Source: a virus. Taken from it: DNA of 64,000 nt. The notes beneath the pieces were generated by a model. That model did not search any database and was not told the DNA's origin. It saw only the letters and a list, made by a program, of their open reading frames with translations. A program made the translations under genes and the position numbers. The stretch is from positions 160,001-224,000 of IMG/VR virus record IMGVR_UViG_3300045988_138996; one strand, written 5' to 3'. This document shows positions 37,005 through 59,687 of this stretch, one piece after another. Positions within the stretch are counted from its first letter, which is position 1; the number at the start of each line of letters is the position of its first letter.

Positions 37005-37022
37005 GGGCTCCGCTCCGAAATC
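37005..37022 (+). promoter_or_regulatory. TCC-loop hairpin motif, copy a (GGGC-TCC-GCTC-CGAAATC)
   Basis: Member of the 8-copy motif family. Intergenic, 80 nt upstream of ATG 37102. Confidence 0.6.
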
Positions 37023-37101
37023 TTTTACGAGGGTATTTGGCCCTCAGTATTTTATATTCATGGCGACCGTTCCATGTAAAAATACCGGCAGAGGAGATAT
37101 C

Positions 37102-37422
37102 ATGAAATTAGTATCTAATGTTAATTACAAAAAAAATGACGTATTCAACTTATTCGTTCTTTTAAATAAAATGGACGGATTTTTCGTCGGCGAGCCAATT
37201 GAAGGCATTCAAGCCGACGTAACTCAAATTTCCTTTGAAGATAACGATAATTTGTTTATCGTTATCGAAACATATTTCAACGGTAAAAAGTTGAGAACAT
37301 TTTATTTCGATTTCAGTGGCAAAGAAATTTCCACCGAAGTACGTACAGAGGACGTGACTATAGCGTCCAAAGTATTATCTCAATTAGAAGAAGACTTCGC
37401 AGATTACTGCGAAGAATTATAG
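37102..37422 (+). CDS. hypothetical protein
   Basis: Start at ATG 37102 after GAGGAG (MKLVSNV...). 106 aa. Confidence 0.55.
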   Translation: MKLVSNVNYKKNDVFNLFVLLNKMDGFFVGEPIEGIQADVTQISFEDNDNLFIVIETYFNGKKLRTFYFDFSGKEISTEVRTEDVTIASKVLSQLEEDFADYCEEL

Positions 37423-37434
37423 GAGGAATTTACC

Positions 37435-37806
37435 ATGAAATATAAATACGATGGTAAAAAATACTGTGTTTCTAATTTTCTGGATAATGATAATTTATTG
37501 TCTCGTCAAGTTTGGCACTCTTTGAGTGCTAAGCCTGGCGAAGGCAAAAATTTAACAGTTCAAAAAGTAAAGGAGCATACAGTTGTGTGCTCTTATTTCA
37601 CTTATGACAGAGGTGCTCAAGACTTTGTTGAAGTCATGGAAGAATACCCAATGGAAGATGTTGCTCTCACTGGAGATGCGGCAGTATCGTTAGAGTTTAA
37701 TAAGATATTAAGCTCTTTAAATACTGAAACAGCAGAATTATTAGAAGACTTAGTGTCTTATAAAGAACATTCTGCTGCTATAGCAGGATATAATGGCTGT
37801 ATTTAA
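37435..37806 (+). CDS. hypothetical protein
   Basis: 123-aa ORF after AGGAGGAA. Confidence 0.55.
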   Translation: MKYKYDGKKYCVSNFLDNDNLLSRQVWHSLSAKPGEGKNLTVQKVKEHTVVCSYFTYDRGAQDFVEVMEEYPMEDVALTGDAAVSLEFNKILSSLNTETAELLEDLVSYKEHSAAIAGYNGCI

Positions 37807-37812
37807 TATATT

Positions 37813-37863
37813 AAGCTTTAGTTATGGATTATATTATATCTGTAGCTAAAGCTTTATTTTTTT
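37813..37863 (+). terminator. rho-independent terminator
   Basis: AAGCTTTAGTTA ... TAGCTAAAGCTT forms a 12-bp stem with one G.U pair, followed by TATTTTTTT. Confidence 0.65.
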
Positions 37864-37876
37864 ATAAATATTGTTC

Positions 37877-38040
37877 GGTGACAGGTGTCCGCCCTATTAT
37901 ATATTTATTAGTATAGTGTTGGATAATACTATAATACTAATAAGAGAGGGCGGCACCGTATTCGACTTCCGACGCTTGCAACGTTTCGCTATCGCTTAGG
38001 CGTTGCTGCGTCTCTGGTCGTCGAATACTCACCTGTCACC
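37877..38040 (+). ncRNA. candidate structured RNA (three-way-junction-like, about 164 nt)
   Basis: Closing stem GGTGACAGGTG (37877-87) / CACCTGTCACC (38030-40). It encloses arm 1, CCGCCCT (37889-95) / AGGGCGG (37947-53), and arm 2, GTATTCGAC (37958-66) / GTCGAATAC (38020-28). Arm 2 has inner stems GACGC/GCGTC and GCAACG/CGTTGC. Confidence 0.5.
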
Positions 38041-38147
38041 TTTGTCTTAATTTCGGCAGTGTCCCTTCGGGTCTTTACTGCGGAATATATTCTTTCTTGT
38101 GTTATTTAGCCGATCCGGCGGTAGTAGTTTACTAGTGTGTTCTGTAT

Positions 38148-38166
38148 GACGCTCCGCGTCGAAATT
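38148..38166 (+). promoter_or_regulatory. TCC-loop hairpin motif, copy b (GACGC-TCC-GCGTC-GAAATT)
   Basis: Compensatory stem relative to copy a. 58 nt upstream of ATG 38224. Followed by ATGAGGG-TATTTT-CCCTCAT plus a T-run. Confidence 0.6.
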
Positions 38167-38223
38167 ATTTATGAGGGTATTTTCCCTCATTTTTCTTTTA
38201 TTATTCATAGGAGGAGAAAAACT

Positions 38224-38628
38224 ATGAAAACCGTTAAAGTTATTAAAGTTGATATGCCTTGTCAAAAAAGAAGAAATCCTATTCTTGATGTTATTAAGGT
38301 TGAAGTTAAAAAGGTTGAAGAGCCTGTTAAGGACAAGTTCTTGAGCCATCCGTTATTTAAAGATTATTTTGTTCGTGAAGCTGGAGTATTTGCTCCAGAA
38401 ACCGAATGCTGGAGATTTTCTGTTCCTGGTCATGATGATATGGAAGTTTCTGTAATCAGAAGTTCTATGACTTATGGAGGCAGTAAGGGACTGTTTGAAC
38501 TAGCCATGTTGCGTAACGACAAGTGTTGTTATGACACACCTATTACTAATGATGTACGTGGCTGGTTAGAAGTTGAAGATGTGTTGGACATTCTAGAAGA
38601 TGTTCAACGCATTTACGAGGAGGCGTAG
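38224..38628 (+). CDS. hypothetical protein
   Basis: Start at ATG 38224 after AGGAGGAG (MKTVKVIKV...). 134 aa. Confidence 0.55.
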   Translation: MKTVKVIKVDMPCQKRRNPILDVIKVEVKKVEEPVKDKFLSHPLFKDYFVREAGVFAPETECWRFSVPGHDDMEVSVIRSSMTYGGSKGLFELAMLRNDKCCYDTPITNDVRGWLEVEDVLDILEDVQRIYEEA

Positions 38629-38629
38629 C

Positions 38630-38917
38630 ATGAAATTCATACTTTTCGGTGAGGCTATGCCGAAAACCGAATTTAATGCTGTGGACTGCTACCACGCGTT
38701 AGAATACGCTTTGGGCACCTTCTTCAAGGATTGTGTCGTTGCAGAAAATGTGACATCACTTGAAGAAGGCGTCGTAGCGGTCTGTATTCGTTCATGGGCA
38801 AATATCGGTTCTGAAGAAGAGCCGGTGTCATATGAACGGCATCCGGTGTATTTGCTAGAAGAGGCAAGATATAACAAATTATCGCCTCATACTCTAGCAA
38901 TCATAACTGGAGAATAG
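38630..38917 (+). CDS. hypothetical protein
   Basis: Start at ATG 38630 after GAGGAGG (MKFILFGE...). 95 aa. Confidence 0.55.
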   Translation: MKFILFGEAMPKTEFNAVDCYHALEYALGTFFKDCVVAENVTSLEEGVVAVCIRSWANIGSEEEPVSYERHPVYLLEEARYNKLSPHTLAIITGE

Positions 38918-38943
38918 CCCCCCGCCGGGGCTAAACCTTCTAC

Positions 38944-38995
38944 GGGGTACTATGTCGACATTTACGGCATGGTACTCCTGTTGAAGTTTTTGTTT
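38944..38995 (+). terminator. terminator-like hairpin
   Basis: GGGGTACTATG / CATGGTACTCC forms an 11-bp stem. Two G.U pairs work only for + strand RNA. Followed by a T-rich tail GTTTTTGTTT. Confidence 0.5.
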
Positions 38996-39014
38996 GCGAC
39001 TCCGTCGCGAAATT
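38996..39014 (+). promoter_or_regulatory. TCC-loop hairpin motif, copy c (GCGAC-TCC-GTCGC-GAAATT)
   Basis: Compensatory stem. 56 nt upstream of ATG 39070. Confidence 0.6.
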
Positions 39015-39069
39015 TTTCACGAGGCAATTTCGCCTCACATTCGTTATTCTACATGGAAGGAGAAAAGTT

Positions 39070-39231
39070 ATGCCAGTAGAAACAGTTTATAATTATCATT
39101 TAATAGATGTTGATAGAGAAATGTTCTCCGTTACAACATCTGATACTACTTCCGAAGTACTCAGAGAGTACCAAGGTTATGTATTAGTCGAAAGAGAAGT
39201 AATAGGCTATAGAGCAATCTTAGCCGACTAA
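39070..39231 (+). CDS. small hypothetical protein (53 aa, not in ORF track)
   Basis: GGAAGGAG RBS 6 nt upstream. MPVETVYNYHLIDVDREMFSVTTSDTTSEVLREYQGYVLVEREVIGYRAILAD. Bracketed by motif c and a hairpin. Confidence 0.55.
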   Translation: MPVETVYNYHLIDVDREMFSVTTSDTTSEVLREYQGYVLVEREVIGYRAILAD

Positions 39232-39236
39232 TAATG

Positions 39237-39275
39237 AGGTGCTGGTAAGAAATTGCCGGCACCTTGCTTTAATTT
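39237..39275 (+). terminator. terminator-like hairpin
   Basis: AGGTGCTGG / CCGGCACCT with one G.U pair, followed by TGCTTTAATTT. Confidence 0.4.
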
Positions 39276-39316
39276 AGTATTTAATATTTCATTATAAACA
39301 TGAGGAGGATATTATC

Positions 39317-39463
39317 ATGTTAAAGAAACAATTCGTACAATGGCTTAATTCTTTTTACGCGGAATACCCTGTAACATTCCGCGTGTTCTGGTTCCTAGTG
39401 GGCTGGACTGTAGGCAGTGCAGTAAAGATGGCAGTGTTGCAACATCGCCTTAACAAACGCTAG
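39317..39463 (+). CDS. small membrane protein (48 aa, not in ORF track)
   Basis: GAGGAGG RBS. MLKKQFVQWLNSFYAEYPVTFRVFWFLVGWTVGSAVKMAVLQHRLNKR has one TM segment. Confidence 0.5.
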   Translation: MLKKQFVQWLNSFYAEYPVTFRVFWFLVGWTVGSAVKMAVLQHRLNKR

Positions 39464-39503
39464 GCGATAGAAGGTTTCGCTGGAGGGTTAACTTCTGAAG
39501 TTT

Positions 39504-39521
39504 CCCCTCCGGGGCGAAATC
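39504..39521 (+). promoter_or_regulatory. TCC-loop hairpin motif, copy d (CCCC-TCC-GGGG-CGAAATC), orphan
   Basis: Fully compensated stem. No ORF follows. A terminator-like hairpin starts 6 nt downstream. Confidence 0.5.
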
Positions 39522-39526
39522 TCCTG

Positions 39527-39563
39527 TGACCCTCTATTAATAGCTAGGGTCATATTTATTTTT
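39527..39563 (+). terminator. terminator-like hairpin after motif d
   Basis: TGACCCT ... AGGGTCA followed by TATTTATTTTTATT. Confidence 0.5.
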
Positions 39564-39694
39564 ATTATAAAGCTTTATATAAGCTACCGTAGGTGCTATG
39601 TACTCATAATACCTCCCTTTAATAAGATACACAACAACCTAATGTGCATCTACGGTAGTTGATATAAGGTTTTATATACCTTACGAGATTGAGA

Positions 39695-39712
39695 GGGCTC
39701 CGCCCCGAAATC
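39695..39712 (+). promoter_or_regulatory. TCC-loop hairpin motif, copy e (GGGC-TCC-GCCC-CGAAATC)
   Basis: 205 nt upstream of ATG 39917. The intervening leader folds into several hairpins. Confidence 0.6.
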
Positions 39713-39916
39713 TTTCATGGGGCCTTCTGTGTGGAGGTCCCTTTCATACTTTTCTCCTCTTCTCCAGTAGTTAGGTCTGCTGGAGATATGAGGGCTAGAT
39801 GAGCATTGACTTATCTAGCCTTGATATCTCTTGCAAGTGTGTGTTGATGCAAGAGGAGATTTTATTTTCACTATGGCACGTGAAGCCATAGTACTTTTAA
39901 GAAGGAGGACATTACA

Positions 39917-40633
39917 ATGTCTAAGAAAACAGCTTTCGCAACAATTACTGCATTTTTATTCGGTTCCAATGCTAACGGCTGGAGCCAAATGCTATCAGCA
40001 GTAGTAGCTGGTAAAAATGGTGTGCGTGACACCAAACCAACTCACGTAACAGTAGCAGGTCAAAGCTACGTAGGTCAAGGTATTGACGCATTAGCACAGT
40101 TGTTGGAACTGTTCGCCAACAAATCTGTGAATTATGCACGTTTTACAGCAGAGGTTATTACATCCGATGCTGTAGCAATTCGTGCATACAGCATTATGAA
40201 AGGCTTGAAAGATGGTTTAACACCTGCAAAGGTTGCTGACCATGTAATGAAACAAGCCGACTCTGCGGAAGACCGCGAGTGCTTTAAACGTTTCGCAATG
40301 GCGTTGAAAGATTGCCAACAACAAAACGTGATGCTTCGTATCTCCCGCTTGTCTCAAGAGCACAGCTATGCTCTTGAAATCCCCGAAGGCGTAGAAGTAA
40401 ACGCCGGGGATATTATCAAGTTCGACCGTGGCGTGTCTGAAGATGGCGTGAAGTTGGCATATGGAGTGCAATCCAGCTACGCTTATGAATTAGCTAAGGT
40501 CAATGATGAGCTTAAAGCTCTCAGACCTAAAAACACTCCAAACAGCAAGCATCGTATGGCTTGCATTAATGGTACTCTTAATCTCATTCGTGAGATTAAG
40601 GCTGAAGAAGTGTCTGCAGAAGACCTTATCTAA
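39917..40633 (+). CDS. hypothetical protein
   Basis: 238-aa ORF after AAGGAGGA. Codon usage is G+C-richer than the rest of the window. Confidence 0.6.
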   Translation: MSKKTAFATITAFLFGSNANGWSQMLSAVVAGKNGVRDTKPTHVTVAGQSYVGQGIDALAQLLELFANKSVNYARFTAEVITSDAVAIRAYSIMKGLKDGLTPAKVADHVMKQADSAEDRECFKRFAMALKDCQQQNVMLRISRLSQEHSYALEIPEGVEVNAGDIIKFDRGVSEDGVKLAYGVQSSYAYELAKVNDELKALRPKNTPNSKHRMACINGTLNLIREIKAEEVSAEDLI

Positions 40634-40637
40634 CATT

Positions 40638-40662
40638 GGGGGCATTAGCCCCCTTTATTTTT
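40638..40662 (+). terminator. rho-independent terminator
   Basis: GGGGGC-ATTA-GCCCCC followed by TTTATTTTTATT. Confidence 0.8.
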
Positions 40663-40684
40663 ATTAATAAAGAGGAGGCCCACA

Positions 40685-41182
40685 ATGGCAACTTTTAATC
40701 TTAAACACGCAAATCCTGAAGTTATTAGTTATATGGCTGAAAAAATTCAGGTAGAATATCAAGGTACCGTTGAAGAAATCGACGGCGGTATTAAAGTAGA
40801 ATGTTCTGACGAACATTTAAAAGACATTACGGACGCTTTTTCTAGAGTGAAACGTAATACTACAGTTTCAGGCTGGACTAAAACAGCCACTAAGTTTATT
40901 GGTCGTCAGACCAATACTATTAAAGACGCTGGCATCGGTGCCGTAGGCCTAGGTGCTAAAGGTTTGTTCGGAGGCTTGAAAAAGGTATCCGAATTGGCTA
41001 TGGGTGCGACTAGTGTTATTATCAATGAAGGTAAAGAAGCTTGGAAAGAAGCTAGCGTTAGCGATGAGCTTCGTAACTTGAAGAAGAGCTTCGGCAGTAC
41101 TGGTAGCGATGAAGAAGGCATTGAAATCATTAAAGATAATGCTGAAACTACTGTAAATAAAACTGCCGGTGCAGAAGGCTAA
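40685..41182 (+). CDS. hypothetical protein (Gly/Lys-rich centre)
   Basis: 165-aa ORF after AGAGGAGG. Confidence 0.6.
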   Translation: MATFNLKHANPEVISYMAEKIQVEYQGTVEEIDGGIKVECSDEHLKDITDAFSRVKRNTTVSGWTKTATKFIGRQTNTIKDAGIGAVGLGAKGLFGGLKKVSELAMGATSVIINEGKEAWKEASVSDELRNLKKSFGSTGSDEEGIEIIKDNAETTVNKTAGAEG

Positions 41183-41199
41183 TAATTTCTGCGGACGAT

Positions 41200-41375
41200 T
41201 GCTATTAACCGTCGGTAAATATTAATAGCATATAGCCCTAGTTGTCGAGAGCGAGTGGGACGACAACCTTATTCCGACCCTTAAAAGATGTTCTTGGTCG
41301 GGCTAATAAGATATGAACATCTAAGGTTTATAAGCGGGTGATGTCTGACGCTTATAATCTAAAATGCAGACATCA
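41200..41375 (+). ncRNA. structured 3' region with two tandem pseudoknot-like modules
   Basis: Hairpins TGCTATTAA/TTAATAGCA and GTTGTCG/CGACAAC. PK1: CCGACC (41274-79), AGATGTTC (41286-93), GGTCGG (41296-301), GAACATCT (41315-22). PK2: TATAAGCG (41329-36), TGATGTCTG (41339-47), CGCTTATA (41349-56), CAGACATCA (41367-75). Confidence 0.45.
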
Positions 41376-41380
41376 TAATA

Positions 41381-41436
41381 GGGTTTAGTCTAGAGGGGCA
41401 GGATTTGCTCTCCTAGGCTAAACCTTTATTTTTTCT
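41381..41436 (+). terminator. rho-independent terminator
   Basis: GGTTTAGTCTAG... / ...CTAGGCTAAACC long stem with a G.U pair, followed by TTTATTTTTT. Confidence 0.65.
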
Positions 41437-41654
41437 TATGTTGAATATACATTTAGGTGATACTGTCGTTACAGCGTTAGCTAAATGTATATTTTTTTAT
41501 AATTCGCGAAAAGCATATCGCCTCAGTACGTATGGCGTAATTCGGGTGTTAGCTTTAGCGAAAGTCCATTTTTTTGGACACTTTTGGCAGTGGGCTAATT
41601 TTTTTAGTGACTGCTTTTTTTATCGGAACGATTACGTTTCCGATCGCCAAGAAT

Positions 41655-42215
41655 TATTAAGGAGCGAGCGTCAGCGAGCGACTGTATATTATTTTATATA
41701 TAGTAAGCCCGAGCGAAGCGAGGGCGTATATATCAAGTTCTCTGTGTACTCTCTTCTAAAGAGAGTAGTTTTGTATTTATTTAGTATAGTCTAAGGCGAG
41801 CGAAGCGAGCCGTATATTCTTTGTTTACTTTCTTTTTAAGAAAGTAATTATGTTTATTATTTATTATTAGTAGTTCTCTGCTGTCTCTCTTGTAAAGAGA
41901 GTAGTTATATTATTAGTATTTTATATGTATAGATTCTCTGTTATCTCTCTTATCAAGAGAGTAATTAGTTATTTTATATATATGTATCATAATAGTATTA
42001 ACGCAGCGAGCGAAGCGAGCGGAGTATGTATTATGTAGTATGTAGTTATTCCCGAAGAACGAGGAACGCTAGTGACGAGTGAATTGTAGTGTCCTAGCGT
42101 AAGCGACGATCATAAGAGTATATATTGTATATTATATATAGGGCGAGCGAGGGGAGCGTCAGCGACCGGAGCGAGCATAGTATTATTATATAATATATTA
42201 TAGGGAGCATAGCGA
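41655..42215. repeat. GC-box repeats (GAGCGAAGCGAG-type) each followed by GTAT(A/G)TAT
   Basis: GCCC-GAGCGAAGCGA-GGGC-GTATAT (41707), GGC-GAGCGAAGCGA-GCC-GTATAT (41795), CGC-A-GCGAGCGAAGCGA-GCG-GAGTATGTAT (42002). Degenerate copies at 41661, 42141 and 42203. Confidence 0.6.
41735..41966. repeat. four copies of a 35-nt unit with a CTCTCTT-NNN-AAGAGAG hairpin
   Basis: Hairpins at 41747-67, 41825-47 (variant ACTTTCTT-TTT-AAGAAAGT), 41885-901 and 41945-61. Flanked by TTCTCTG... upstream and TA(G/A)TT downstream. Confidence 0.65.
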
Positions 42216-43483
42216 CCGGAGTATATATATAGTCTTATAGGAGCTAGATAGGCCAATAAGGATTGGTGAATATTTAGTATATCGTGATATAGTATATCGT
42301 ATTATACTATAGTAGTATATAGTAAATATGTGAGATCCTTATTTACAGTAAAAAGAAAAATTCGGCCTTGAAAATTTACAGGTCGTAGACCGGAAAATTT
42401 TAAGTATTTTCCGCCCGGGGATATCTATATCATATATATAGTATAAGAAGGAACGTAGTGACTGGTAGATATATATTATGTTAATAATATAGTATATTTT
42501 CTGCCGTCGGTATTTTGTTAAAAGAGAGACTACTATATATAATAATTTCCGCCTAGGATATTATGGTTTATATATAATATGTTTTTAGTTAATGTTTTTC
42601 CTGTATGCATACGCATACAGATATTAAAAACTTTTAGGGTGGGATATCTTATAATAATATTGAACGTCAGTGAAATGTTATTATAGATTTAAATCTATAT
42701 TAGATATAATTTTAATGAGAGCTATTAATGTGAAGAATAGGGAGCGCCGCGAATCTATTCAGCTATTAAAATTCTTAGTCGACACGATAGTATAGTATGG
42801 TAGAGATCGTGTCGATAGGTTACGAGTGCTAACGAGTTATATGTAGAATTCGTTGAGATGAAGGATGTTATCGATGAGCCCGCGAAGAGAAACATCGTTC
42901 TTTAGAATTCGTAACAATATATCTAATGCGTTTGTGTATTATCAATATATATCAAGAAAATATATACTGATGTGTTTGAGTGAAGCTTGCGAAAAGAAAA
43001 ACGCAATCAATTTTTATATATCGTAACGAAGCCCGTAAGGGTTCGTATTAGTATTATATATAGCTTATGAATATAAGCGTATGTATATAACTATTAATAC
43101 GAATTATACCAAAGTATTAGAAGTTAGTAAGCGTCTAATAAGTAGGTGGTTTTTGTTTGGGATCCGCCGTTATCTTAGTATTTCATTTACTAGCTAAGGT
43201 ATTTAAAAGTCCCTTGCGTTTATTTTAGTCGAGTTATTTTATATATAATATTATATATAATAATAACGAAGAGCCATTACTGTTAAGAATGGATAGTAGA
43301 CGAAATTGGGAACGGGCCCCAATAATAGTTATTATATTCTCTTAGAGAATATATAACGTCAATGGTTCGTCGTGTACGATCCTTTTCGAGTTTCGCAGAA
43401 AATTACGTAAGTAAGAGTTTGTAGCATTTGTAAAATGGGACAACATTTTGTTAGTATTCTCGCTATGTTACACATAGCGACAC

Positions 43484-43513
43484 AAAAAAAGACCCCGAAT
43501 TAATTTCGAGGTC
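43484..43513 (-). terminator. minus-strand rho-independent terminator
   Basis: On the - strand, GACCTCGAA-ATTAA-TTCGGGGTC pairs perfectly with one G.U, followed by 7 T. On the + strand there is a C.A mismatch and no T-run. Confidence 0.6.
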
Positions 43514-43608
43514 GTTATATATTGTTTACTAAAAGCGATGAACTACGTTCATCGGTATATTACTCATGTTTAAGTATAAGTTATTAATAATTTAAAAAAA
43601 TAATTCAG

Positions 43609-43633
43609 AAAATAAAAAAGACCCCGAAGGGCC
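43609..43633 (-). terminator. minus-strand rho-independent terminator
   Basis: On the - strand, GGCCC-TTCG-GGGTC (UUCG loop, one G.U pair) followed by TTTTTTATTTT. Confidence 0.55.
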
Positions 43634-43811
43634 ATTTTTATATAAGTATTTTTTTAATATTCAAAGCGGTGCGAAGCGAAGCGTAGCAAACCGTGGAGCG
43701 TAGCGGAACGGTGAACTGCGTTCACCGGTATATTACTCTGTTTAGATACGTCGTTAATCAAAAATAAAAAAATATTTTTTATTTAATTCTATTATATATA
43801 TAACAAGCAAT

Positions 43812-43853
43812 AAAAAAAACAGCCTCAGATTTTTATGACCTGGACTGTTTTGT
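43812..43853. terminator. bidirectional terminator-like hairpin
   Basis: An A8 run, an imperfect ACAGCC...GGACTGT stem, then TTTTGTGTG. Confidence 0.35.
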
Positions 43854-44007
43854 GTGTGTAAAAACGGAAGCGGTGTAACGTAGTTACACCGGTATATTAC
43901 TCAAGTTAGGTATATCATTAATCAATTTTGTAAAAATAATTAAATATTCATTATTAATGCATAAAGTAAGACAGGGGTATTTTTAAGTTAAAAAAATAGA
44001 AAAAATT

Positions 44008-44035
44008 AAAGTCAGATAATATCTGGCTTTTTTTA
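44008..44035 (+). terminator. plus-strand rho-independent terminator
   Basis: AAAGTCAGAT-AAT-ATCTGGCTTT, where the G.U pair works only on the + strand, followed by TTTTT. Confidence 0.55.
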
Positions 44036-44470
44036 ATTTTAATGTCTGGTTTAGTATATATAGGAAACAATAAAACATAATATACAGAATATGTATATTT
44101 ATGAATACGAGCTTTTTTCAAAAGCGTTCGCCTACCATAGCTTACTCCGAAAAGTTTAAATGAAACGTCGTAAGCGTACTAGTGACGCGGGTTTTTAATA
44201 ATTTTATATTTTAAAATTATGTAGGGTTAGGAACGAGGTATATAAAAATTGCTCCCTTAATAGTTCTTATTTATCTCTTATATATACTATATATATAATA
44301 TAAAAGGATTATTTTTTTATATAGTCCGCCGTCTCCTCACGAGCGCCAACCTGAGTTATATTTAGCTATATATATAGGTATTGCTATAGCTTTATTTAGC
44401 TCTGTATATACGGCTAGACCTATTTAAAACATCTTACCTGTATAGGTAGCTCCCTTGGGGGGTGGGGGGA

Positions 44471-44759
44471 GTCCGCAACACTCTCAAGTTTGTTATTTTT
44501 AAGTAAAAACTAGTAAAAATTGTTTATGGCTATTAAAACGATTAAGAGTTGGTAACACTCTGTATTTGCTGTTAATTAACTAAAAATGGCTGTTTTTATA
44601 TATACAGCTATTAAAATCATTTTAAGTCCGCAACACTCATAATGTCTCCCTTTTTACACAAAAACAGCTTATTTTGCAATAACTAAGTTTCGTATTTTTG
44701 CAGTATTTTATAATATTTTAGTTTATGACTATTAATATCTATTAAGTCCACAACATTCA
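44471..44759 (+). repeat. four iteron-like direct repeats (GTCCGCAACACTC core)
   Basis: GTCCGCAACACTC at 44471 and 44627, GTTGGTAACACTC at 44548, GTCCACAACATTC at 44747. Three of them are preceded by (G)CTATTAA(A/T)A..ATT(TT)AAG. Spacing is 77, 79 and 120 nt. Confidence 0.6.
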
Positions 44760-44803
44760 TAAAAACGTCTTAAATAGTTAAAAACAATATATTTTCATAT
44801 TAA

Positions 44804-44831
44804 ATGTATTTGGTCATATGTATTTGGTCAT
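44804..44831 (+). repeat. perfect tandem duplication ATGTATTTGGTCAT x2
   Basis: Read directly from the sequence. Followed by several hundred nt of TA-rich low-complexity DNA. Confidence 0.8.
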
Positions 44832-45264
44832 ATAATATATTTAATTAATATAGTGTATTGCTATATATATCATTAATCTGTTATAGCAACTTTATTAGTA
44901 TTTAATAGCTATATATAGTCATATATATAGTTTATTGTTATATTATATATATGGTTTAATATATATTGTCATATATATGTATATAGTTAACGTATTATAT
45001 TATAGTTTATCATTAGTATAGTATTAACAGTTATATTAGTATTTAGTATTATGTTATTAGTAGTATTAGTGTTATTATATATATAGTAAGAGTAATAATA
45101 AAGAGAAACTATTAAATGAAAAGATGCGGGCGATTTTGTATATTGTTTTTTATATCAATCTAATGAATTGCCGCATTTGATTTTTATATGTATGATATAT
45201 TTATCAGCATATGATTAATAACTGTATATGGTTTTATATATATAAGGCTAATGTCATTAAGTAC

Positions 45265-45282
45265 GTGCTCCGCACCGAAATC
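45265..45282 (+). promoter_or_regulatory. TCC-loop hairpin motif, copy f (GTGC-TCC-GCAC-CGAAATC)
   Basis: Compensated stem. 46 nt upstream of ATG 45328, the first gene of the small-gene array. Confidence 0.6.
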
Positions 45283-45327
45283 TCCCGTAGTCCTTTTTTA
45301 TTATATAGGAATTAATGAGCGTAGAGA

Positions 45328-45528: not shown

Positions 45529-45529
45529 T

Positions 45530-53678: not shown

Positions 53679-53727
53679 TAAGTTAAATTAGGGTTGTCAT
53701 TAATTTACCACCATTTACTTCACGGTC

Positions 53728-53745
53728 GGGCTCCGCCCCGAAATC
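53728..53745 (+). promoter_or_regulatory. TCC-loop hairpin motif, copy g (GGGC-TCC-GCCC-CGAAATC)
   Basis: Identical to copies e and h. 50 nt upstream of ATG 53795. Followed by a CCACA...TGTGG hairpin. Confidence 0.6.
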
Positions 53746-53794
53746 TTCTCCACACTTTTCTAATGTGGTTTAGTCAAACGAAAGGAATATAATC

Positions 53795-54151
53795 ATGCAA
53801 CAAGTAACATTCGAATCTAAAGAACAAGCTAAAGAATTTTTTAGTACATTAGGTGAAAATCTTAAAGCTAGCCAAAATAAGATTTTTGAATTTAGCGGTC
53901 AACAATGGAATTTTAATAGCACTCCAGAAGTGACACCTAAATTAATTAATGCTGTATTAGTATCTGAAAATAATGTATTATATGTAACAGCTAATCTAAG
54001 TAACGATACAGTATATGCTGATATTGATTTAGAAGATAATATTTCTGGTTTTGGTTATAGCGAATTAGAAAAATCTGTATTATTATCTAATTTAGTATAT
54101 CGTATATTAGAAGATTATACTAAATTTATGTTCTGTAAAAATGAACGATAA
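53795..54151 (+). CDS. hypothetical protein
   Basis: 118-aa ORF after AAAGGAAT. Confidence 0.55.
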   Translation: MQQVTFESKEQAKEFFSTLGENLKASQNKIFEFSGQQWNFNSTPEVTPKLINAVLVSENNVLYVTANLSNDTVYADIDLEDNISGFGYSELEKSVLLSNLVYRILEDYTKFMFCKNER

Positions 54152-54524
54152 AACTAGCTTTGGTTTACTTAGTACGATGTTTTTTAATATAAACTTTTTT
54201 CAGGCAAATATACCAAAACTATTAATTGGTGGACGATCTTTTGTATTCGATTTTGGTTATGATAATGAATCAAATCTTATTATTAAAACTTGCGACGACT
54301 ATATAAATAAACAAGTCATATATTTTAATATTAACGTGATGCGCGTCGATTCAATGACTCAGTATTCAGAAAAAGAATCGGATATATGTCTTTCAAATTT
54401 TATGTATCGTACAGTAATTCCGAGAAAAGTCCGTTCTGATTTTGATACATGCAAAATGTTTAATCAATTTAATTTATATGTACATTATATTATGTTTTCA
54501 TTTAATTATATGTATTGGAGGTGA
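54141..54524 (+). CDS. hypothetical protein
   Basis: 127-aa ORF in the array. Confidence 0.5.
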   Translation: MNDKTSFGLLSTMFFNINFFQANIPKLLIGGRSFVFDFGYDNESNLIIKTCDDYINKQVIYFNINVMRVDSMTQYSEKESDICLSNFMYRTVIPRKVRSDFDTCKMFNQFNLYVHYIMFSFNYMYWR

Positions 54525-54528
54525 ATGT

Positions 54529-54813
54529 ATGATTAAACTAGGATTTGGATCTGATAAAGAGACACAAAACGTATATAATAGTTTAAAAAAATTTGCTGAA
54601 AAGGATATGTTTTCAGAATATTCTATTACAGACTTTGAAGAGAATAAGGCTCGTAATTCTTTTAGATTTACGATTGTGTATGATGAAGATTATGTATATT
54701 CATATATGGTTTGGTACGAAGCTGGTATTTTAAATATCGAACCAGAAAAAGAAGATTACGTAGCAGAGGATATAGCATTTGTTCTATATCCGATTGCCGA
54801 AATGTTATTATAG
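54529..54813 (+). CDS. hypothetical protein
   Basis: Start at ATG 54529 after GGAGGTG (MIKLGFGSDKE). 94 aa. Confidence 0.55.
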   Translation: MIKLGFGSDKETQNVYNSLKKFAEKDMFSEYSITDFEENKARNSFRFTIVYDEDYVYSYMVWYEAGILNIEPEKEDYVAEDIAFVLYPIAEMLL

Positions 54814-54827
54814 AAAGGATAGTACAT

Positions 54828-54920
54828 ATGTTAGCTATATTATTTGTAATTTTTATGATGATTTATTTAGCTCTAGCCATTGGTGGTACATTAGCTGGCT
54901 GGGACAAGAAAGATAAATAA
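54828..54920 (+). CDS. 30-aa membrane peptide
   Basis: ATG 54828 after GAAAGGA. MLAILFVIFMMIYLALAIGGTLAGWDKKDK. The longer 54711 reading overlaps the previous gene. Confidence 0.4.
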   Translation: MLAILFVIFMMIYLALAIGGTLAGWDKKDK

Positions 54921-54921
54921 T

Positions 54922-55155
54922 ATGGATCAGTTTTACTTAGATAGCATAGCTTTAATCGGATTCATGATAATATGGTTTATATTTGCAATAATTGTATATC
55001 TTTTACATACTGTATATAGAATATATAAAACAAAAAAAATATCAGATTCATTCGAATATGTATTTAAAATGCATGCACGAATGTTTTGTAAATTTTATAT
55101 CACAACAATGTTATTTTTTATATTTTGTGCTTTTCTTAAAAGTATAGTCGAATAG
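54922..55155 (+). CDS. small membrane protein (2 TM)
   Basis: 77 aa. IALIGFMIIWFIFAIIVYLL and ITTMLFFIFCAFL. Confidence 0.5.
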   Translation: MDQFYLDSIALIGFMIIWFIFAIIVYLLHTVYRIYKTKKISDSFEYVFKMHARMFCKFYITTMLFFIFCAFLKSIVE

Positions 55156-55156
55156 T

Positions 55157-55489
55157 ATGACATTACAAGATCTATTAAAAAATATAAGGAATTATACGCT
55201 GCTAGAAAAAGAAGCTTATTGCTTATTTAAATGTCAAGATTTCTATATACATATGTTTCGTTTTGTTACTGATAACAACTTAAGATTTTTAATAACTAAA
55301 AAAGACGATTTAGCTATAAATACACTAGAAATAATAGCAAAAAATAACGGTAATTTTTTTCATTGGCAAGGCGAAACAAGTTGGCTATACTATTATTATG
55401 AGCAATTACCTAACGTATGTACGTATCTAGCATATTTGTATTTATTTAGTTGTATAATAAAAATAAATGAAAGTAAAAATAGAAGATAA
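55157..55489 (+). CDS. hypothetical protein
   Basis: 110-aa ORF. Tyr-rich ...WLYYYYEQL near the C-terminus. Confidence 0.5.
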   Translation: MTLQDLLKNIRNYTLLEKEAYCLFKCQDFYIHMFRFVTDNNLRFLITKKDDLAINTLEIIAKNNGNFFHWQGETSWLYYYYEQLPNVCTYLAYLYLFSCIIKINESKNRR

Positions 55490-56111
55490 AACATTTCTTA
55501 AACGATTCGAGGTTTTTCGAGAAGCTAATAATAATCGATTTACTATGAAGCGAAAAAAGTATCGAATCCGTCAATATTACACTGACGAAGGATCTAGATA
55601 CGAAGTATTTAGTCGAGGTAAACAGTATTTCGGATCTTTTAGAATTACTGAAAGTAGTCAGTATATGCATTCTAACGATATTAGCGAAGAAAATATGCTG
55701 CTAATTATTAAAGGAATAAGCGATACAATATGCTCGTATCGCGTTCCTTTAAAATACGATGGTTATTCTTGTGCATCGTATGTCGAAAAAGCGATGGACC
55801 GATTGCGTTTTAGCGATACTAATATTCATATCGGATATCATGATGTGCAATTTGAAGTTACTAGACTTAATAATGTTGTCGGATATATTAAAACCGAAGC
55901 TAGAACAAATGCTATCGATGTATATAATATGCAGATGACATTACAGTATCAGTATTATGATGATGGTATGTATATTTTCTATCATCAGTTATTAGAAAAA
56001 GGCAAAGATCATGCCATAAAAATATATTATAAATTTTTAATAGCAATATGTAATTTAATTGAATATCAATATATTATTTGTTTAACAAGCGTAGAAAGAA
56101 TACCGTTTTAA
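55467..56111 (+). CDS. hypothetical protein
   Basis: 214-aa ORF in the array. Confidence 0.5.
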   Translation: MKVKIEDKTFLKRFEVFREANNNRFTMKRKKYRIRQYYTDEGSRYEVFSRGKQYFGSFRITESSQYMHSNDISEENMLLIIKGISDTICSYRVPLKYDGYSCASYVEKAMDRLRFSDTNIHIGYHDVQFEVTRLNNVVGYIKTEARTNAIDVYNMQMTLQYQYYDDGMYIFYHQLLEKGKDHAIKIYYKFLIAICNLIEYQYIICLTSVERIPF

Positions 56112-56120
56112 GAGGTGACT

Positions 56121-56420
56121 ATGGAAGAATATATTAGAATTACAGATTGGATGTTATGCCAACATTTTGAGATGTTGATTAATACGCATCGAATAACTGG
56201 TAAATTTAATATTTTAGATTTAGATAATGTAACGTGTGAAATTACATATGATAATGCATATCGTAGACTAAACCTATTAATTGACGAAGATAATTATTTT
56301 GTCAATGCTATTTACGATACCAATGTAAAAACATTGTACTGGTGTATCGGAAATAATATTTCGTTTAACGACTTTGAAAAAGTATTACAAGAGGCTAAAT
56401 ATGTTCGACCTGTCGTTTGA
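56121..56420 (+). CDS. hypothetical protein
   Basis: ATG 56121 after AAGAGG. A GTG at 56115 is also possible. Confidence 0.5.
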   Translation: MEEYIRITDWMLCQHFEMLINTHRITGKFNILDLDNVTCEITYDNAYRRLNLLIDEDNYFVNAIYDTNVKTLYWCIGNNISFNDFEKVLQEAKYVRPVV

Positions 56421-56622
56421 GACTCTTGAGTTTTTAAAAATTATTCTTGATATTATTTTAGGATGCATATTAGGATTTTTAATACATACCGTATTAACTA
56501 AATTTGTCGATAAAGTATTTGATGTATATAATAAAGACGGCGAAATTCATTTATTGTTTATGATATTGCCGTCTTGTTTTATTGTATTATTACTGTGGGG
56601 TATCGTTACATGGATGAGATGA
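56401..56622 (+). CDS. small membrane protein (2 TM)
   Basis: ATG 56401 after AAGAGG. ILDIILGCILGFLIHTVL and LLFMILPSCFIVLLLWGIV. Confidence 0.5.
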   Translation: MFDLSFETLEFLKIILDIILGCILGFLIHTVLTKFVDKVFDVYNKDGEIHLLFMILPSCFIVLLLWGIVTWMR

Positions 56623-56876
56623 AACTTCAATTAGAAGTACTATATAAAATCTTAATGCTAGATTTTCATAAATTCTATCGTCGAGAAAAAGGATCGTATA
56701 ACCTAACTATTAAAAAAGTAGGCGATGCCGTTATGGTTACTGTCGATTGGAACGAAAATAAAAACTTCGTAAAATTTCAAATATATTGGGATTCTGAAGA
56801 GAAACATACAAGCTTTAGCTTTAATTTTGATACCGATAAAATTGACGCATTGTATATCGTAAAGGATTTATTATAA
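56619..56876 (+). CDS. hypothetical protein
   Basis: ATGA overlap start at 56619. An alternative ATG lies at 56610. Confidence 0.5.
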   Translation: MKLQLEVLYKILMLDFHKFYRREKGSYNLTIKKVGDAVMVTVDWNENKNFVKFQIYWDSEEKHTSFSFNFDTDKIDALYIVKDLL

Positions 56877-56892
56877 GAAGGGAGATTTTTAT

Positions 56893-57177
56893 ATGGGAAT
56901 GGTAAATGAAATCACAAATAAGTTAATTGGCATTAAAGGCCGTATCGCTTTTGAACATAAAGACTGTATTATCTATATCGACAATTCTCGTAAAAAAGAA
57001 GTCGATAGCGGCGATATTCAGATCTTCAAGGATCGTAAACAAGTATATGACTTTTCTATTGCATATCCTTCTAAGGAATGCAAATCTAAGGGTATTTACA
57101 ATAATACAAAAGATAAATTTATTAATAATATCGATTTAGAAAAATTACATGAGATTATTATGACGACAGACCTATGA
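56893..57177 (+). CDS. hypothetical protein
   Basis: 94-aa ORF after AGGGAG. Confidence 0.5.
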   Translation: MGMVNEITNKLIGIKGRIAFEHKDCIIYIDNSRKKEVDSGDIQIFKDRKQVYDFSIAYPSKECKSKGIYNNTKDKFINNIDLEKLHEIIMTTDL

Positions 57178-57821
57178 TTTTCTTAAAAGATAAATATCGA
57201 ATTGTCTTAGATAAAAGAAACGTTACAACAATTCTTATTACAATATTAACAATAGCATTCTTTTTATTTTGTGATATGAATTATGCTACTGATAATGGAA
57301 AACTGGCATTATATCAAACGCCAATATTAATTATCGTCGTAAGTATAATCACGATCGACATATTACCTAATAAGGTTAATCCGTTTCATATCGATTGTCT
57401 AATGACAGCTAAAGTTGACGAAAAACAAACTGAAGTAGTATTTAATATCTTTAAAAATATAATAAATCTTGTTCTTTGTGAAATTTTACATTATCCTAAT
57501 ATTCTTGAATTACGAATTAAAGATATTAATATCGGTCAATTAAAAAACGTAACATTAATGATCAGAGCTATTGGTTCTGTTGAATTCGGTAAAAGATCTG
57601 TCGACTTATTAATTTCAGTATATAATAATGATGTGGCTATTCCATTAGTATCATTTTCAATAATAATAACATCTGATATTCAGGATATATTAGATAGTAT
57701 AACAGTAACGAAAAATTTAAATCAATGGAAAGATATTATCGTATTAGCTAAGACAGTAGAATATTATTTGATAAATCATCAATATAAAGGGGCTATTAAA
57801 AATGAAGAAAGAGGATTTTAA
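57174..57821 (+). CDS. membrane protein
   Basis: 215 aa. Two N-terminal TM segments, TTILITILTIAFFLFC and PILIIVVSIITIDIL. Confidence 0.5.
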   Translation: MIFLKDKYRIVLDKRNVTTILITILTIAFFLFCDMNYATDNGKLALYQTPILIIVVSIITIDILPNKVNPFHIDCLMTAKVDEKQTEVVFNIFKNIINLVLCEILHYPNILELRIKDINIGQLKNVTLMIRAIGSVEFGKRSVDLLISVYNNDVAIPLVSFSIIITSDIQDILDSITVTKNLNQWKDIIVLAKTVEYYLINHQYKGAIKNEERGF

Positions 57822-58206
57822 ACAGCTATGCTGGTTATTTCGATTATTTTTAATAGCTATTAATACTGAATGTTATCAGTCAAATGATTTTAAAATTGGC
57901 GAATTTAAATATGCTGTTAGATTAATAGCTGTTGAACATATCCTTCATGTCGAATTGTTAAAGAAAAATAATCCGGTCGTTGCTTCAATATCTGGTGTCG
58001 AATATTTACCACAGGAATCATTAAGTTATAACTTTAGAACAAACGATATATTAAACGATTATTTTGAATTATTCTTTAACGGCAGTAAGATTATTGAAGA
58101 AAATCTTAATATACTGTATAATATATCATATAATATATGTAATCCTGTAGAAATCATGAAAGGACTAGTTAATAACAATGGTCGGAAGAATAAAATTTAC
58201 TGGTAA
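57802..58206 (+). CDS. hypothetical protein
   Basis: 134-aa ORF in the array. Confidence 0.5.
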   Translation: MKKEDFKQLCWLFRLFLIAINTECYQSNDFKIGEFKYAVRLIAVEHILHVELLKKNNPVVASISGVEYLPQESLSYNFRTNDILNDYFELFFNGSKIIEENLNILYNISYNICNPVEIMKGLVNNNGRKNKIYW

Positions 58207-58501
58207 GCTAAGTACTATTAATAGAATTAATAATGAATTATTTTATACTGATATGTTCGCGGGCAATTGTATCGTCAAAGAAAAAATTCGTTGTGACAAT
58301 ATTTTAATGTTAACAATCGAAACTAATTACGATATTAATTCAGCATATTTAGTTTCCTTAAGCGACAAATACCATGTTAATATCGAATATAGTATTAGCG
58401 ATCATAAAAATCATATTAAACATAATGGTATTGTCGTATTTGAAAATAATAAAGCCGAAATAATCGAAGAGAAAAAATTTAACTATGAATCAAAAGCTTA
58501 G
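58178..58501 (+). CDS. hypothetical protein
   Basis: 107-aa ORF in the array. Confidence 0.5.
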   Translation: MVGRIKFTGKLSTINRINNELFYTDMFAGNCIVKEKIRCDNILMLTIETNYDINSAYLVSLSDKYHVNIEYSISDHKNHIKHNGIVVFENNKAEIIEEKKFNYESKA

Positions 58502-58949
58502 TCGACGTGTCTTTGCAGCAGTAAAAGATAATGTCTTAATAACATCTGAATGCCGATATTATGAATTTAATAGACTCGATATTTCGGCAGCTAAAACAAA
58601 TGTTAGGCTTACGTCTAAAGATACCGAAGAATCTAAAATGTTTAATAGTATAAAAACATTAATAGCACTTGTTAATAAATACGATGAATTTAAACAAGCC
58701 GGTATGATTATATGGTTATTAGGATACTATAGTTTTATCTTAAATAAAGATTTAGACATAAAAAAACATTTTAAATTATTTAAAGAAATTCAGACTATAT
58801 ATGCTCAACAACTTAATTTTGGTCCTAATGAAGTTCAGACTCAACGACTTAGAGAATCGTTAGAACAGGTAGCTAGTCGACTTAATGAACAAATTAATTT
58901 CTGGACCGATATTTATAGAAATCTTAACGAGAGGAATGGTGATCGATGA
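58485..58949 (+). CDS. hypothetical protein
   Basis: 154-aa ORF in the array. Confidence 0.5.
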   Translation: MNQKLSRRVFAAVKDNVLITSECRYYEFNRLDISAAKTNVRLTSKDTEESKMFNSIKTLIALVNKYDEFKQAGMIIWLLGYYSFILNKDLDIKKHFKLFKEIQTIYAQQLNFGPNEVQTQRLRESLEQVASRLNEQINFWTDIYRNLNERNGDR

Positions 58950-59623
58950 ACGGAAGTTTACGTAACTTATTTAAACGTCATCGCCATAGTTTTAATCCAG
59001 AAAGCTTACTGCGTGACTTAAAAAAGAATAAAGAAAAAAAGAATTTATTTGACAAAGTTAAAGAAATGGAGGAGGCTAGAAAAGCAGAAGTGTTGGAACC
59101 AGAGCGTAACAACTATCCACAGTGTAAAGTTGATTTAGTCGCACAAATACAGCAAGAAATCGAAGAAGAAAATACTCCGAATGAACCGGCGGACGATATT
59201 CAAGAAGTTTCTGTACACGCTGATTGTCCTACAATCGAAATTGATGATTGGACGACAGAAGATTTAGTACGTACTATTCAGAAAAGTAAAGAAGCTATTA
59301 AACATATAATGCAAAATTACGAGTTCTGGAATAGCATGGTGAAGGAATGCGATCAAGCACTTGGCGATCTTCGACATTTCGCTGAATTTTACGACGACGC
59401 TACACAAGAAGAAATTAATAAAGTTTATGAATTAATGACTGAATATAGTCGTAAGCGTCGTGTGTATAAAGATCGCGTCGAAATTTTTAAAGATTTGTTC
59501 GCCGGCAAGGCTAAGATGGAAAACACTTACGCTCCAATTAATCAAATGTTTAATAAATTTAACAAGATGAATATCGAGCGTCAATATTCTCCACGCGTCC
59601 TTAAGGACTTGTTCGAGCGTTAG
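58946..59623 (+). CDS. hypothetical protein
   Basis: 225-aa ORF, 4-nt overlap with the upstream gene. Followed by a GC hairpin. Confidence 0.55.
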   Translation: MNGSLRNLFKRHRHSFNPESLLRDLKKNKEKKNLFDKVKEMEEARKAEVLEPERNNYPQCKVDLVAQIQQEIEEENTPNEPADDIQEVSVHADCPTIEIDDWTTEDLVRTIQKSKEAIKHIMQNYEFWNSMVKECDQALGDLRHFAEFYDDATQEEINKVYELMTEYSRKRRVYKDRVEIFKDLFAGKAKMENTYAPINQMFNKFNKMNIERQYSPRVLKDLFER

Positions 59624-59643
59624 TCACATTCTACATTATCTTT

Positions 59644-59660
59644 CGGGGACTTCGTCCCCG
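59644..59660 (+). terminator. terminator-like GC hairpin
   Basis: CGGGGAC-TTC-GTCCCCG followed by TTCTCATT. The T-tract is weak. Confidence 0.45.
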
Positions 59661-59669
59661 TTCTCATTC

Positions 59670-59687
59670 GGGCTCCGCCCCGAAATC
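59670..59687 (+). promoter_or_regulatory. TCC-loop hairpin motif, copy h (GGGC-TCC-GCCC-CGAAATC)
   Basis: 53 nt upstream of ATG 59740. Followed by a strong hairpin plus T8. Confidence 0.6.

Follow-up and report, generated by a model that had tools for sequence, protein, structure and literature searches.

A 64,000-nt stretch of DNA from an uncultured, human-associated phage of about 230 kb (IMG/VR record IMGVR_UViG_3300045988_138996, positions 160,001 to 224,000; the whole stretch, about 28% of the genome, is called the window here and positions are counted from its first letter) carries eight intergenic copies of a short element in which a hairpin with a 4-bp stem and a 3-nt loop is followed by a conserved block. 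The stem bases differ between copies while their pairing is kept, and the hairpin is under structural selection. The best reading of the element is that it marks one class of transcription unit, and from comparison of sequences we lean, with modest confidence, towards a promoter, some 28 nt long, read by a phage-encoded RNA polymerase (RNAP) that would recognise a DNA hairpin.

Copies of the element and covariation of its stem

A first-pass annotation of the window had listed eight copies of an 18-nt motif with the coordinates and sequences given below, all on the + strand and intergenic, seven of them 46–205 nt upstream of a start codon, and all of these particulars were reproduced. The pattern CTCCG-N3-CGAAATY has eight matches in the 64 kb, every one of them on the + strand; in 100 dinucleotide-preserving shuffles the mean number was 0.00 and the maximum 0. 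All eight lie between the best gene models, copy b being overlapped only by a GTG-extended form of the open reading frame (ORF) at 38224 and by an ORF on the − strand. It is the composite motif that gives the signal, since CGAAATY by itself occurs about as often as expected (41 against 36). A covariance model of the non-redundant copies, run over both strands of the window with filters off returned the same eight copies at 27–43 bits and added one degenerate copy at 17 bits, with otherwise nothing below E = 1; it gave no match in positions 1–37 kb or on the − strand. The copies are as follows, distances being from the motif end to the start codon:

37005..37032, + strand: copy a, GGGC-TCC-GCTC-CGAAATC-TTTTACGAGG, with one G.T stem pair; 42.6 bits; 80 nt before ATG 37102, about 33 nt past a T-run and 38 nt from an in-leader ATG at 37060
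38149..38176, + strand: copy b, ACGC-TCC-GCGT-CGAAATT-ATTTATGAGG; 58 nt to ATG 38224
38920..38947, + strand: degenerate ninth copy, CCCC-GCC-GGGG-CTAAAC; 17.1 bits
38997..39024, + strand: copy c, CGAC-TCC-GTCG-CGAAATT-TTTCACGAGG; 56 nt to ATG 39070
39504..39531, + strand: copy d, CCCC-TCC-GGGG-CGAAATC, then a 9-bp hairpin and T-run (39525–39554) without an ORF
39695..39722, + strand: copy e, GGGC-TCC-GCCC-CGAAATC; structured leader of 205 nt to ATG 39917
45265..45292, + strand: copy f, GTGC-TCC-GCAC-CGAAATC; 46 nt to ATG 45328
53728..53755, + strand: copy g, GGGC-TCC-GCCC-CGAAATC; 50 nt to ATG 53795
59670..59697, + strand: copy h, GGGC-TCC-GCCC-CGAAATC; 53 nt to ATG 59740, with a 9-bp hairpin and T8 (59706–59737) in between

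At the position of the degenerate copy relatives have an intact one, in tandem and 77 nt ahead of site c. Copy f is the first element past a non-coding repeat region of about 4 kb and heads a cluster of small low-GC ORFs that extends for more than 18 kb. The annotation had also described the copies as usually standing just after a terminator, which is clearly so for copies a and e only.

Two scans of IMG/VR yielded 150 loci, 95 belonging to the family of the window and 55 lying on unrelated contigs. The latter form a natural control, each having a single match to the sequence pattern with the stem unpaired in every case, whereas the copies in the 95 family loci are paired. Including those of the window there are 215 distinct copies (218 before three probable chance matches were dropped); stems are fully paired in 195 of the 218, and 31 different stems occur. 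In 28 non-redundant copies, picked without any pairing criterion, 99.1% of the stem cells are paired with 36 two-sided changes, a result reached by none of 500 shuffles, and the compensatory changes noticed in the first-pass annotation are thus real. Slid stem registers pair only 30–56% in the same 28 copies, and RNAalifold recovered the identical helix independently. Stems have been exchanged even at orthologous positions: at site e, recognised by its flanks, they are GGGC/GCCC, CCCC/GGGG and GCAC/GTGC, all paired, while the groups with the flank of site b have CCCC/GGGG, GCAC/GTGC, ACGC/GCGT, TGAC/GTCA, CTCC/GGAG and CACC/GGTG, and also CCCC-GCC-GGGG and CGAC/GTCG.

A search of relatives for strand and intergenic bias had been proposed with the original motif. 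In 35 related loci anchored on the polymerase genes described below, 157 of 157 model matches are on the strand of the polymerase and the other genes, and every one lies downstream of these genes; the structural genes that fill the 8 kb upstream of the polymerase contain no match in these loci. The motif is never found inside coding sequence, the long operons for replication and structural proteins are without it, and in two contigs of about 230 kb its sites are confined to 26–30 kb. Tandem copies 77–110 nt apart occur in relatives, each with its own downstream hairpin.

The 18 nt first described hold the core and tail correctly, but conservation actually continues to about position 28, contiguously, as NNNC-TCC-GNNN-CGAAAT-Y-W-Y-Y-T-N-T-G-A-G-G. 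In this consensus the stem can be written S-S-S-C/G-S-S-S, and T22, T24, G25, A26, G27 and G28 are conserved beyond the 18 nt, G25 being G in 108 of 109 polymerase-proximal copies. Upstream of the motif nothing is conserved at any copy, promoter-like elements included. On the downstream side 168 of the 215 copies, as against 51 of 215 shuffled ones, have a second hairpin (6 bp or more) starting at motif positions 22–26, and it is followed by a T-run in just about a quarter of cases. In the window the second hairpins are:

38171..38190, + strand: second hairpin of copy b, ATGAGGG-tatttt-CCCTCAT
37029–37045: equivalent at copy a
39021–39036: equivalent at copy c
39525–39554: equivalent at copy d
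39719–39741: equivalent at copy e
53750–53768: equivalent at copy g

The distance from the motif end to a start codon led by a Shine–Dalgarno (SD) sequence is 40–61 nt in 31 of 60 site groups and 74–87 nt in 10 more; such constrained spacing implies that the element belongs to the downstream gene. The ribosome-binding regions themselves are of two styles, the genes behind copies a–e having a strong AGGAGGAGAAAA-type SD and many other genes, that behind copy g included, a leader of (A)CGAAAGGA(A/C)AT type. In the leader of copy a, positions 37060–37101 (ATGGCGACCGTTCCATGTAAAAATACCGGCAGAGGAG) are conserved at the DNA level in the related loci L007, L034, L109 and L181 (8232–8271 in the last) with differing downstream proteins, and may be a regulatory leader. 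None of the Rfam 15 covariance models matches at any copy of the motif.

Likeness to N4 hairpin promoters and a possible mechanism

Several features together favour a hairpin promoter. The element is the only conserved one ahead of these units, contiguous and of promoter size; it keeps a fixed distance to the gene, occurs in tandem and is confined to one genome segment; copy f stands at the head of a long gene cluster, behind about 4 kb of non-coding DNA, and copy a lies past a T-run; its core and polarity are common with those of phage N4, the one experimentally established hairpin-promoter system; and a non-canonical polymerase together with a gene for a hybrid-binding domain adjoins the motif cluster.

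To our knowledge DNA-hairpin promoters are a textbook oddity of N4-like phages only, and a literature search found none described outside this group. Promoters of the N4 virion RNA polymerase (vRNAP) are conserved from −17 to +1 with a GC-rich heptamer centred on −11 and flanking inverted repeats, in which the variable stem bases need only pair (PMC4496689). The enzyme contacts −8G, −9C, −10G and −11G, a sheared −10G:−12A pair is formed, and transcription starts eight nt downstream of −8 (PMC4496689). A template-strand oligonucleotide of the N4 P2 promoter reads 5'-...CAGCCAAAAGAAGCGGAGCTTCAAC-3', with the core ...AAAAGAAGCGGAGCTTC... (PMC13492108), from which the P2 hairpin is GAAGC-GGA-GCTTC following AAAA, and the non-template strand reads GAAGC-TCC-GCTTC-TTTT-GG. 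In N4-like Pseudomonas phages the stems are of 4–5 bp and the loops of 3 nt (PMC3715699), and in LUZ7 the early hairpin promoters stand in tandem and start with G, 13–14 nt from the hairpin centre (PMC9163698).

The first-pass annotation had said that the motif recalls N4 promoters, and the likeness is closer than was claimed. The invariant C-TCC-G reads C-GGA-G on the template strand, which is the loop of P2, with the purine G at its centre, and the closing pair (−9C, −10G, −11G, −12A and −13G, the first four being contacted by the N4 enzyme), and its orientation relative to the downstream genes is the same. C-GNA-G belongs to a class of unusually stable DNA mini-hairpins, which would favour a hairpin in template-strand DNA. 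As in N4 and its relatives, where stems have 4–7 bp, the loop of 3 nt sits on a short GC-rich stem whose bases are free but paired, and, as in N4, a short A/T tract comes straight after the stem. The tandem arrangement recalls LUZ7, and the confinement to a single genome region recalls N4, whose promoters stand in the early region, at the genome end that enters first; by generic DNA nearest-neighbour energies the predicted stability of the hairpins equals that of P2, −2.4 kcal/mol.

There are also differences. N4 has no counterpart to the invariant CGAAAT or to the T-N-T-G-A-G-G block, and it has 3 promoters in its first few kb whereas here there are at least eight copies over 23 kb. The phages of the N4-like group are Schitoviridae, unlike the present phage of about 230 kb with its DnaE, which showed no kinship with Schitoviridae by any protein tested. 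The N4 enzyme is a giant T7-like vRNAP; none was seen among the ORFs scanned in the 64 kb, and the polymerase near the motif is a candidate of a two-barrel type resembling RNA-dependent RNA polymerases (RdRP). Promoters of the T7 type are contiguous too and of similar length (about 23 bp, −17 to +6), with an initiation-proximal block CACTATAGGGAGA comparable to T-A-T-G-A-G-G here, and in both cases the predicted transcripts open with a stem-loop; but they are read as duplex, without a covarying hairpin.

By analogy with the N4 vRNAP, the polymerase would recognise a mini-hairpin of the template strand, extruded or melted, by its shape and by the bases CGGAG. Transcription would start 10–20 nt downstream of the hairpin, candidate positions being T17, which the N4 ruler would give, and G25, which is nearly invariant, and the second hairpin would then form the 5' end of an mRNA with a leader of 30–45 nt.

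Candidate polymerase genes and possible readers of the element

The genes at 33632–36873 had been called a candidate two-barrel polymerase that is not preceded by the motif, in keeping with a cascade in which the host RNAP would make it. The absence of a preceding motif was upheld by the covariance scan of the window and in the 35 related loci, where polymerase genes never have one. As to the enzyme itself, sequence comparison partly supports a split relative of an RdRP-type two-barrel enzyme. The genes concerned, the first of them encoding a neighbour of the polymerase, are:

33137..33607, + strand: gene ahead of the polymerase, 156 aa, RNase H1 N-terminal (Cauli_VI) domain, 1e-15
33632..34672, + strand: polymerase ORF1, collinear with P0123 155–473, E 1.6e-19
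34698..35867, + strand: polymerase ORF2, collinear with P0123 487–882, E 1e-36
35914..36873, + strand: polymerase ORF3, collinear with P0123 916–1249, E 2e-7

P0123 is a fused homologue of 1491 aa that emerged when ORF1 was used in an exhaustive HMMER search. It ends in a YpsA/SLOG domain and passes the Pfam RdRP model PF05183 (25.8 bits against a gathering threshold of 23.8, E = 5.4e-6) over residues 557–707, within the stretch that aligns with ORF2. In ORF2 the motif GGxDxDTDG does not vary among 15 sequences, the most distant 48% identical, and is also present in a homologue at 27% identity, and an R-F/N-P-H motif is invariant as well. These findings stand on the side of the two-barrel call. 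On the other side NFDGD of ORF1 is not conserved in relatives, the only hint of the basic residues of the second barrel being GKAxKL of ORF1, whose two lysines are invariant there together with D-x-x-DG-x3-H-x-H. ORFs 1–3 had no sequence or profile match in Pfam, PHROG or PDB, 14 close relatives likewise had no Pfam match, and a second homology search with a polymerase profile gave no new distant relatives. AlphaFold models failed, with predicted local distance difference test (pLDDT) values of 49 for ORF2 (15 sequences) and 34 for ORF1 (5 sequences), and the Foldseek result obtained from such low-pLDDT models is therefore meaningless.

QDE-1 prefers single-stranded DNA, and the N-terminal domain of RNase H1 (Cauli_VI) binds RNA–DNA hybrids and double-stranded RNA. 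Among phage enzymes, gp66 of the crAss-like phage phi14:2 is a virion-packaged RdRP-like two-barrel RNAP that transcribes single-stranded or denatured DNA well and duplex poorly, and no common motif was detectable upstream of its early transcripts (bioRxiv 10.1101/2020.03.07.982082). For YonO of SPbeta the promoter is undetermined (PMC5467207), and the two-barrel vRNAP of P23-45 has a conserved 26-nt motif at its termination sites (PMC10770324). A search of the literature on the two-barrel superfamily found no hairpin promoter described. With gp66, YonO and P23-45 gp96/gp64 the present proteins share a DxDxD-type motif (here GGSDFDTDG) behind R-x-P-H, and further likenesses to two-barrel RNAPs are the two invariant lysines in the N-terminal part, the fused homologue that passes the Pfam RdRP model and the adjacency to virion genes. 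That gp66 and QDE-1 act on single-stranded templates is also in line with a gene for a hybrid-binding domain beside the polymerase; the same Cauli_VI gene stands ahead of the fused polymerase in locus L181. Compared with gp66 and YonO the enzyme differs in being split into three ORFs, or fused with YpsA/SLOG in other clades, and the P23-45 enzymes use linear motifs that are AT-rich or GC-rich, unlike the hairpin element here.

Relatives fall into three polymerase clades, 92–100%, about 50% and 27–31% identical, the polymerase being fused (1491 aa, with YpsA/SLOG) in the most distant clade, where the subunits compared one by one are 23–29% identical (loci compared: window 33632–36873, L181 3058–7533 and L182 8911–12185). 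In the clade at about 50% the structural proteins are still 78–94% identical, and by these comparisons the polymerase appears to evolve, or to be exchanged, far faster than its neighbouring genes. The motif is the same in all three clades. As it is unchanged while the polymerases are 27–50% identical, there are two possibilities, conservation of the recognition module or reading of the motif by some other protein.

One candidate reader is the adjacent split RdRP-like two-barrel polymerase and another is an N4/T7-like polymerase encoded outside the window; a separate specificity factor could also read the motif. That a C-GGA-G mini-hairpin promoter is read by a two-barrel RdRP-like polymerase, split or fused, of these uncultured jumbo phages is a tentative proposal to which we give rather less credence than to a hairpin promoter as such; it would fit the preference of gp66 and QDE-1 for single-stranded DNA. 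The genes served by the element include small low-GC ORFs typical of early genes, which suggests that the enzyme may be delivered with the virion, and the layout suits an enzyme packaged in the virion no less well than the cascade with a polymerase made by host RNAP.

Weighing of the readings and genomic setting

A number of observations speak against a hairpin promoter of the N4 kind. The −8G of N4 is not conserved: at position 9, its complement, 17 of 38 non-redundant copies have C, 9 have T and 12 have G. The N4 ruler (+11 from the loop centre) puts the start on the invariant T17; the conserved G closest to the loop centre, G25, is 19 nt away from it as compared with 11 in N4 and 13–14 in LUZ7, and the LUZ7-type positions +13/14 fall on W/Y of the motif. 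A GCC-loop variant makes up 27 of the 218 copies, keeping the central G and losing −12A. A few conserved copies pair only through G.T on the + strand (GTGC/GTAT), which is A.C on the template; counted over all copies the G.T to A.C asymmetry is 6 to 3, too few to tell the strand of the hairpin. With its 4 bp the inverted repeat is very short for a cruciform to extrude, a step that in N4-type promoters depends on supercoiling and SSB. At copies d and h terminator-like hairpins precede any gene. The motif has no clade-specific positions, and single-subunit polymerases usually shift promoter specificity over a divergence such as that between the three clades. An N4/T7-like polymerase was not found with Pfam and PHROGs among the window ORFs scanned, which comprised most of those of at least 150 aa, namely the ORFs at 12–13029 and 19726–29772, the ORF 14041–18282, those of the polymerase region and nine of the small-ORF cluster. 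Finally, that transcription initiates at the element is something we infer entirely, as we do the start position, the strand of the hairpin and the identity of the polymerase.

The chief rival, which we consider rather unlikely, is an RNA leader element, transcribed from a start further upstream, in which a CUCCG hairpin, a single-stranded CGAAAUYUUYUAUG and the second hairpin would make up a site for a sequence-specific endoribonuclease or an RNA-binding protein. Such a site could serve to cut polycistronic transcripts, to leave the downstream mRNA with a protective 5' hairpin, or to control its translation or stability. The order of an AU-rich single-stranded stretch and then a second hairpin is typical of processing sites, and co-orientation with the genes, the fixed distance to start codons and the constancy of the motif across polymerase clades would all be expected of a leader; the few sense-strand pairs that are G.U-compatible point the same way, as do copies g and h, which lie inside tight arrays of closely packed genes with no terminator ahead. 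As RNA, however, the first hairpin is marginal (−1.6 to −4.6 kcal/mol), and no pseudoknot is detectable, since CGAAAT pairs with the second hairpin's loop no better than in shuffles. Processing also leaves the units in need of promoters, yet nothing promoter-like is conserved upstream of the copies, and it does not sit well with copy f past about 4 kb of non-coding DNA or with copy a past a T-run. Tandem copies make poor sense for processing, the long replication and structural operons are without the motif, and identity of the template-strand core with the N4 DNA hairpin would be a coincidence.

An element acting in DNA outside transcription, appears improbable; it could be a signal for single-strand initiation (ssi) or priming, a site of recombination or nicking, or a mobile palindrome like the repetitive extragenic palindromic (REP) sequences, and would be recognised as a hairpin in DNA made single-stranded by replication or injection. 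An invariant loop on a covarying stem is what REP/RAYT or ssi signals show, the copies flank a non-coding iteron-like region that is a possible origin, and with genes and GC skew both one-directional the strand bias alone cannot part replication from transcription. The spacing to SD-led starts is fixed, however, with conservation that runs on into the leader; the orientation does not flip across the origin-like region; and the motif is never in coding sequence but always accompanied by a downstream hairpin and a gene.

Still less probable is a pause or termination signal for a phage RNAP, comparable to the class II terminators of T7 or to the 26-nt motif of the P23-45 vRNAP. The copies are intergenic and on the coding strand, the first of them come right past the polymerase operon, and conserved terminator motifs are known for a two-barrel phage RNAP (PMC10770324). 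But the distance to the downstream start is constrained, copy f has no upstream gene for about 4 kb, each tandem copy has its own downstream hairpin, and the first hairpin is followed by CGAAAT and not by a U-run. The least probable reading is a promoter for the host RNAP with the sigma-like factor that the phage does encode (ORF 2721–3554; PHROG 351, 5.9e-12, weak Sigma70_r4), given conserved blocks 3 nt apart and not 16–18, covarying stem bases free in sequence and kept in pairing that sigma-type recognition leaves unexplained, and sigma-70-like matches in the region at chance level (61 against 58.8 expected), so that the first-pass annotation was right to call the element unlike −35/−10 promoters.

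The gene for the sigma-like protein (2721–3554, + strand; described by PHROG 351 as 'RNA polymerase sigma factor') lies in the replication module between a DUF1064 gene and RecJ, and no cognate promoter motif for it was identified. In the other intergenic regions no second promoter class was found, TANNTTTG, TTTTTKTAA and TATAAATA all being at chance level.

Two further regions lie close to the motif. Positions 41183–45264 comprise about 4 kb without credible ORFs and with several families of iteron-like repeats, namely a 44-nt unit that contains a palindrome (TCTCTCTT..AAGAGAGTA) and is present four times at spacings of 57–79 nt (41736–41975), three 55-nt units (43550–43941), four AGTCCGCAACACTC-type units spaced 77–120 nt apart (44470–44785) and TATATATA-rich stretches. 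This region may be a replication origin or a genome-end region, and copies of the motif lie on both sides of it in unchanged orientation. Within it a full-length Rfam OTKONC RNA (RF03053; 43293–43458, + strand; 160 bits against a gathering threshold of 141, E = 3e-26), which is the sole Rfam match in the window, has no copy of the motif ahead; a literature search found no paper that mentions the name OTKONC. The second region, 37866–38148 (+ strand), has a very stable predicted structure (−102 kcal/mol, z = −6.9) and adjoins copy b on its upstream side, past a strong terminator at 37813–37854. Positions 37857–38217 are 74% identical in DNA to L181 8651–9011, although the polymerase of L181 is only about 27% identical, and 37866–38148 may be a conserved non-coding RNA or DNA element; it too has no copy of the motif ahead.

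All genes of the window are on one strand and the GC skew is likewise one-directional, with GC content of 25–41%. DnaB, RecJ, a PolIII-alpha DnaE and the sigma-like protein are encoded, tail and baseplate genes are at 14–30 kb, and small low-GC ORFs are densely packed from 45.3 kb on. The ORF at 14041–18282 (+ strand) encodes a 1413-aa protein without a family match, rich in Ala, Lys and Glu, with the look of a coiled coil and YQPKGEY-type repeats, which is probably a fibre; the stretch around it is locally richer in GC and has a high AT skew. Among GenBank phages there was neither a DNA match to the window nor a protein match to the polymerase, and thus no cultured relative, and a search for such relatives with a structural protein gave just a short match, to tail fibres of Thermus phage. 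IMG/VR and ENA contain relatives as contigs that reach 237 kb. One homologue has been binned with a metagenome-assembled genome (MAG) of Segatella salivae (Bacteroidota) and a 7.9-kb contig in a MAG of Mogibacterium diversum (Firmicutes), both oral taxa, and the bins are discordant. Bacterial genomes as a source of a host or prophage were considered and discarded: 29 of 30 exact motif matches are due to chance in GC-rich genomes, and the remaining one is the 7.9-kb Mogibacterium diversum-binned contig.

The motif belongs to no Rfam family, and on the promoter reading it would be an N4-type hairpin promoter in an unrelated phage family. If that reading is true, the core of the N4 hairpin is at work in unrelated human-associated phages of about 230 kb, and the mechanism extends beyond the N4-like phages. 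The promoters of RdRP-like two-barrel phage polymerases such as gp66 and YonO are an open problem, for which the 28-nt candidate is sharply defined. Should the two-barrel polymerase be the reader, that polymerase lineage would have its first defined promoter, and recognition of an extruded DNA hairpin would have evolved twice or have been exchanged between polymerase superfamilies. Dozens of naturally occurring compensatory variants and three polymerase clades make the question testable in vitro. The element also gives a map of transcription units for an uncultured phage group, and a candidate for a compact orthogonal promoter.

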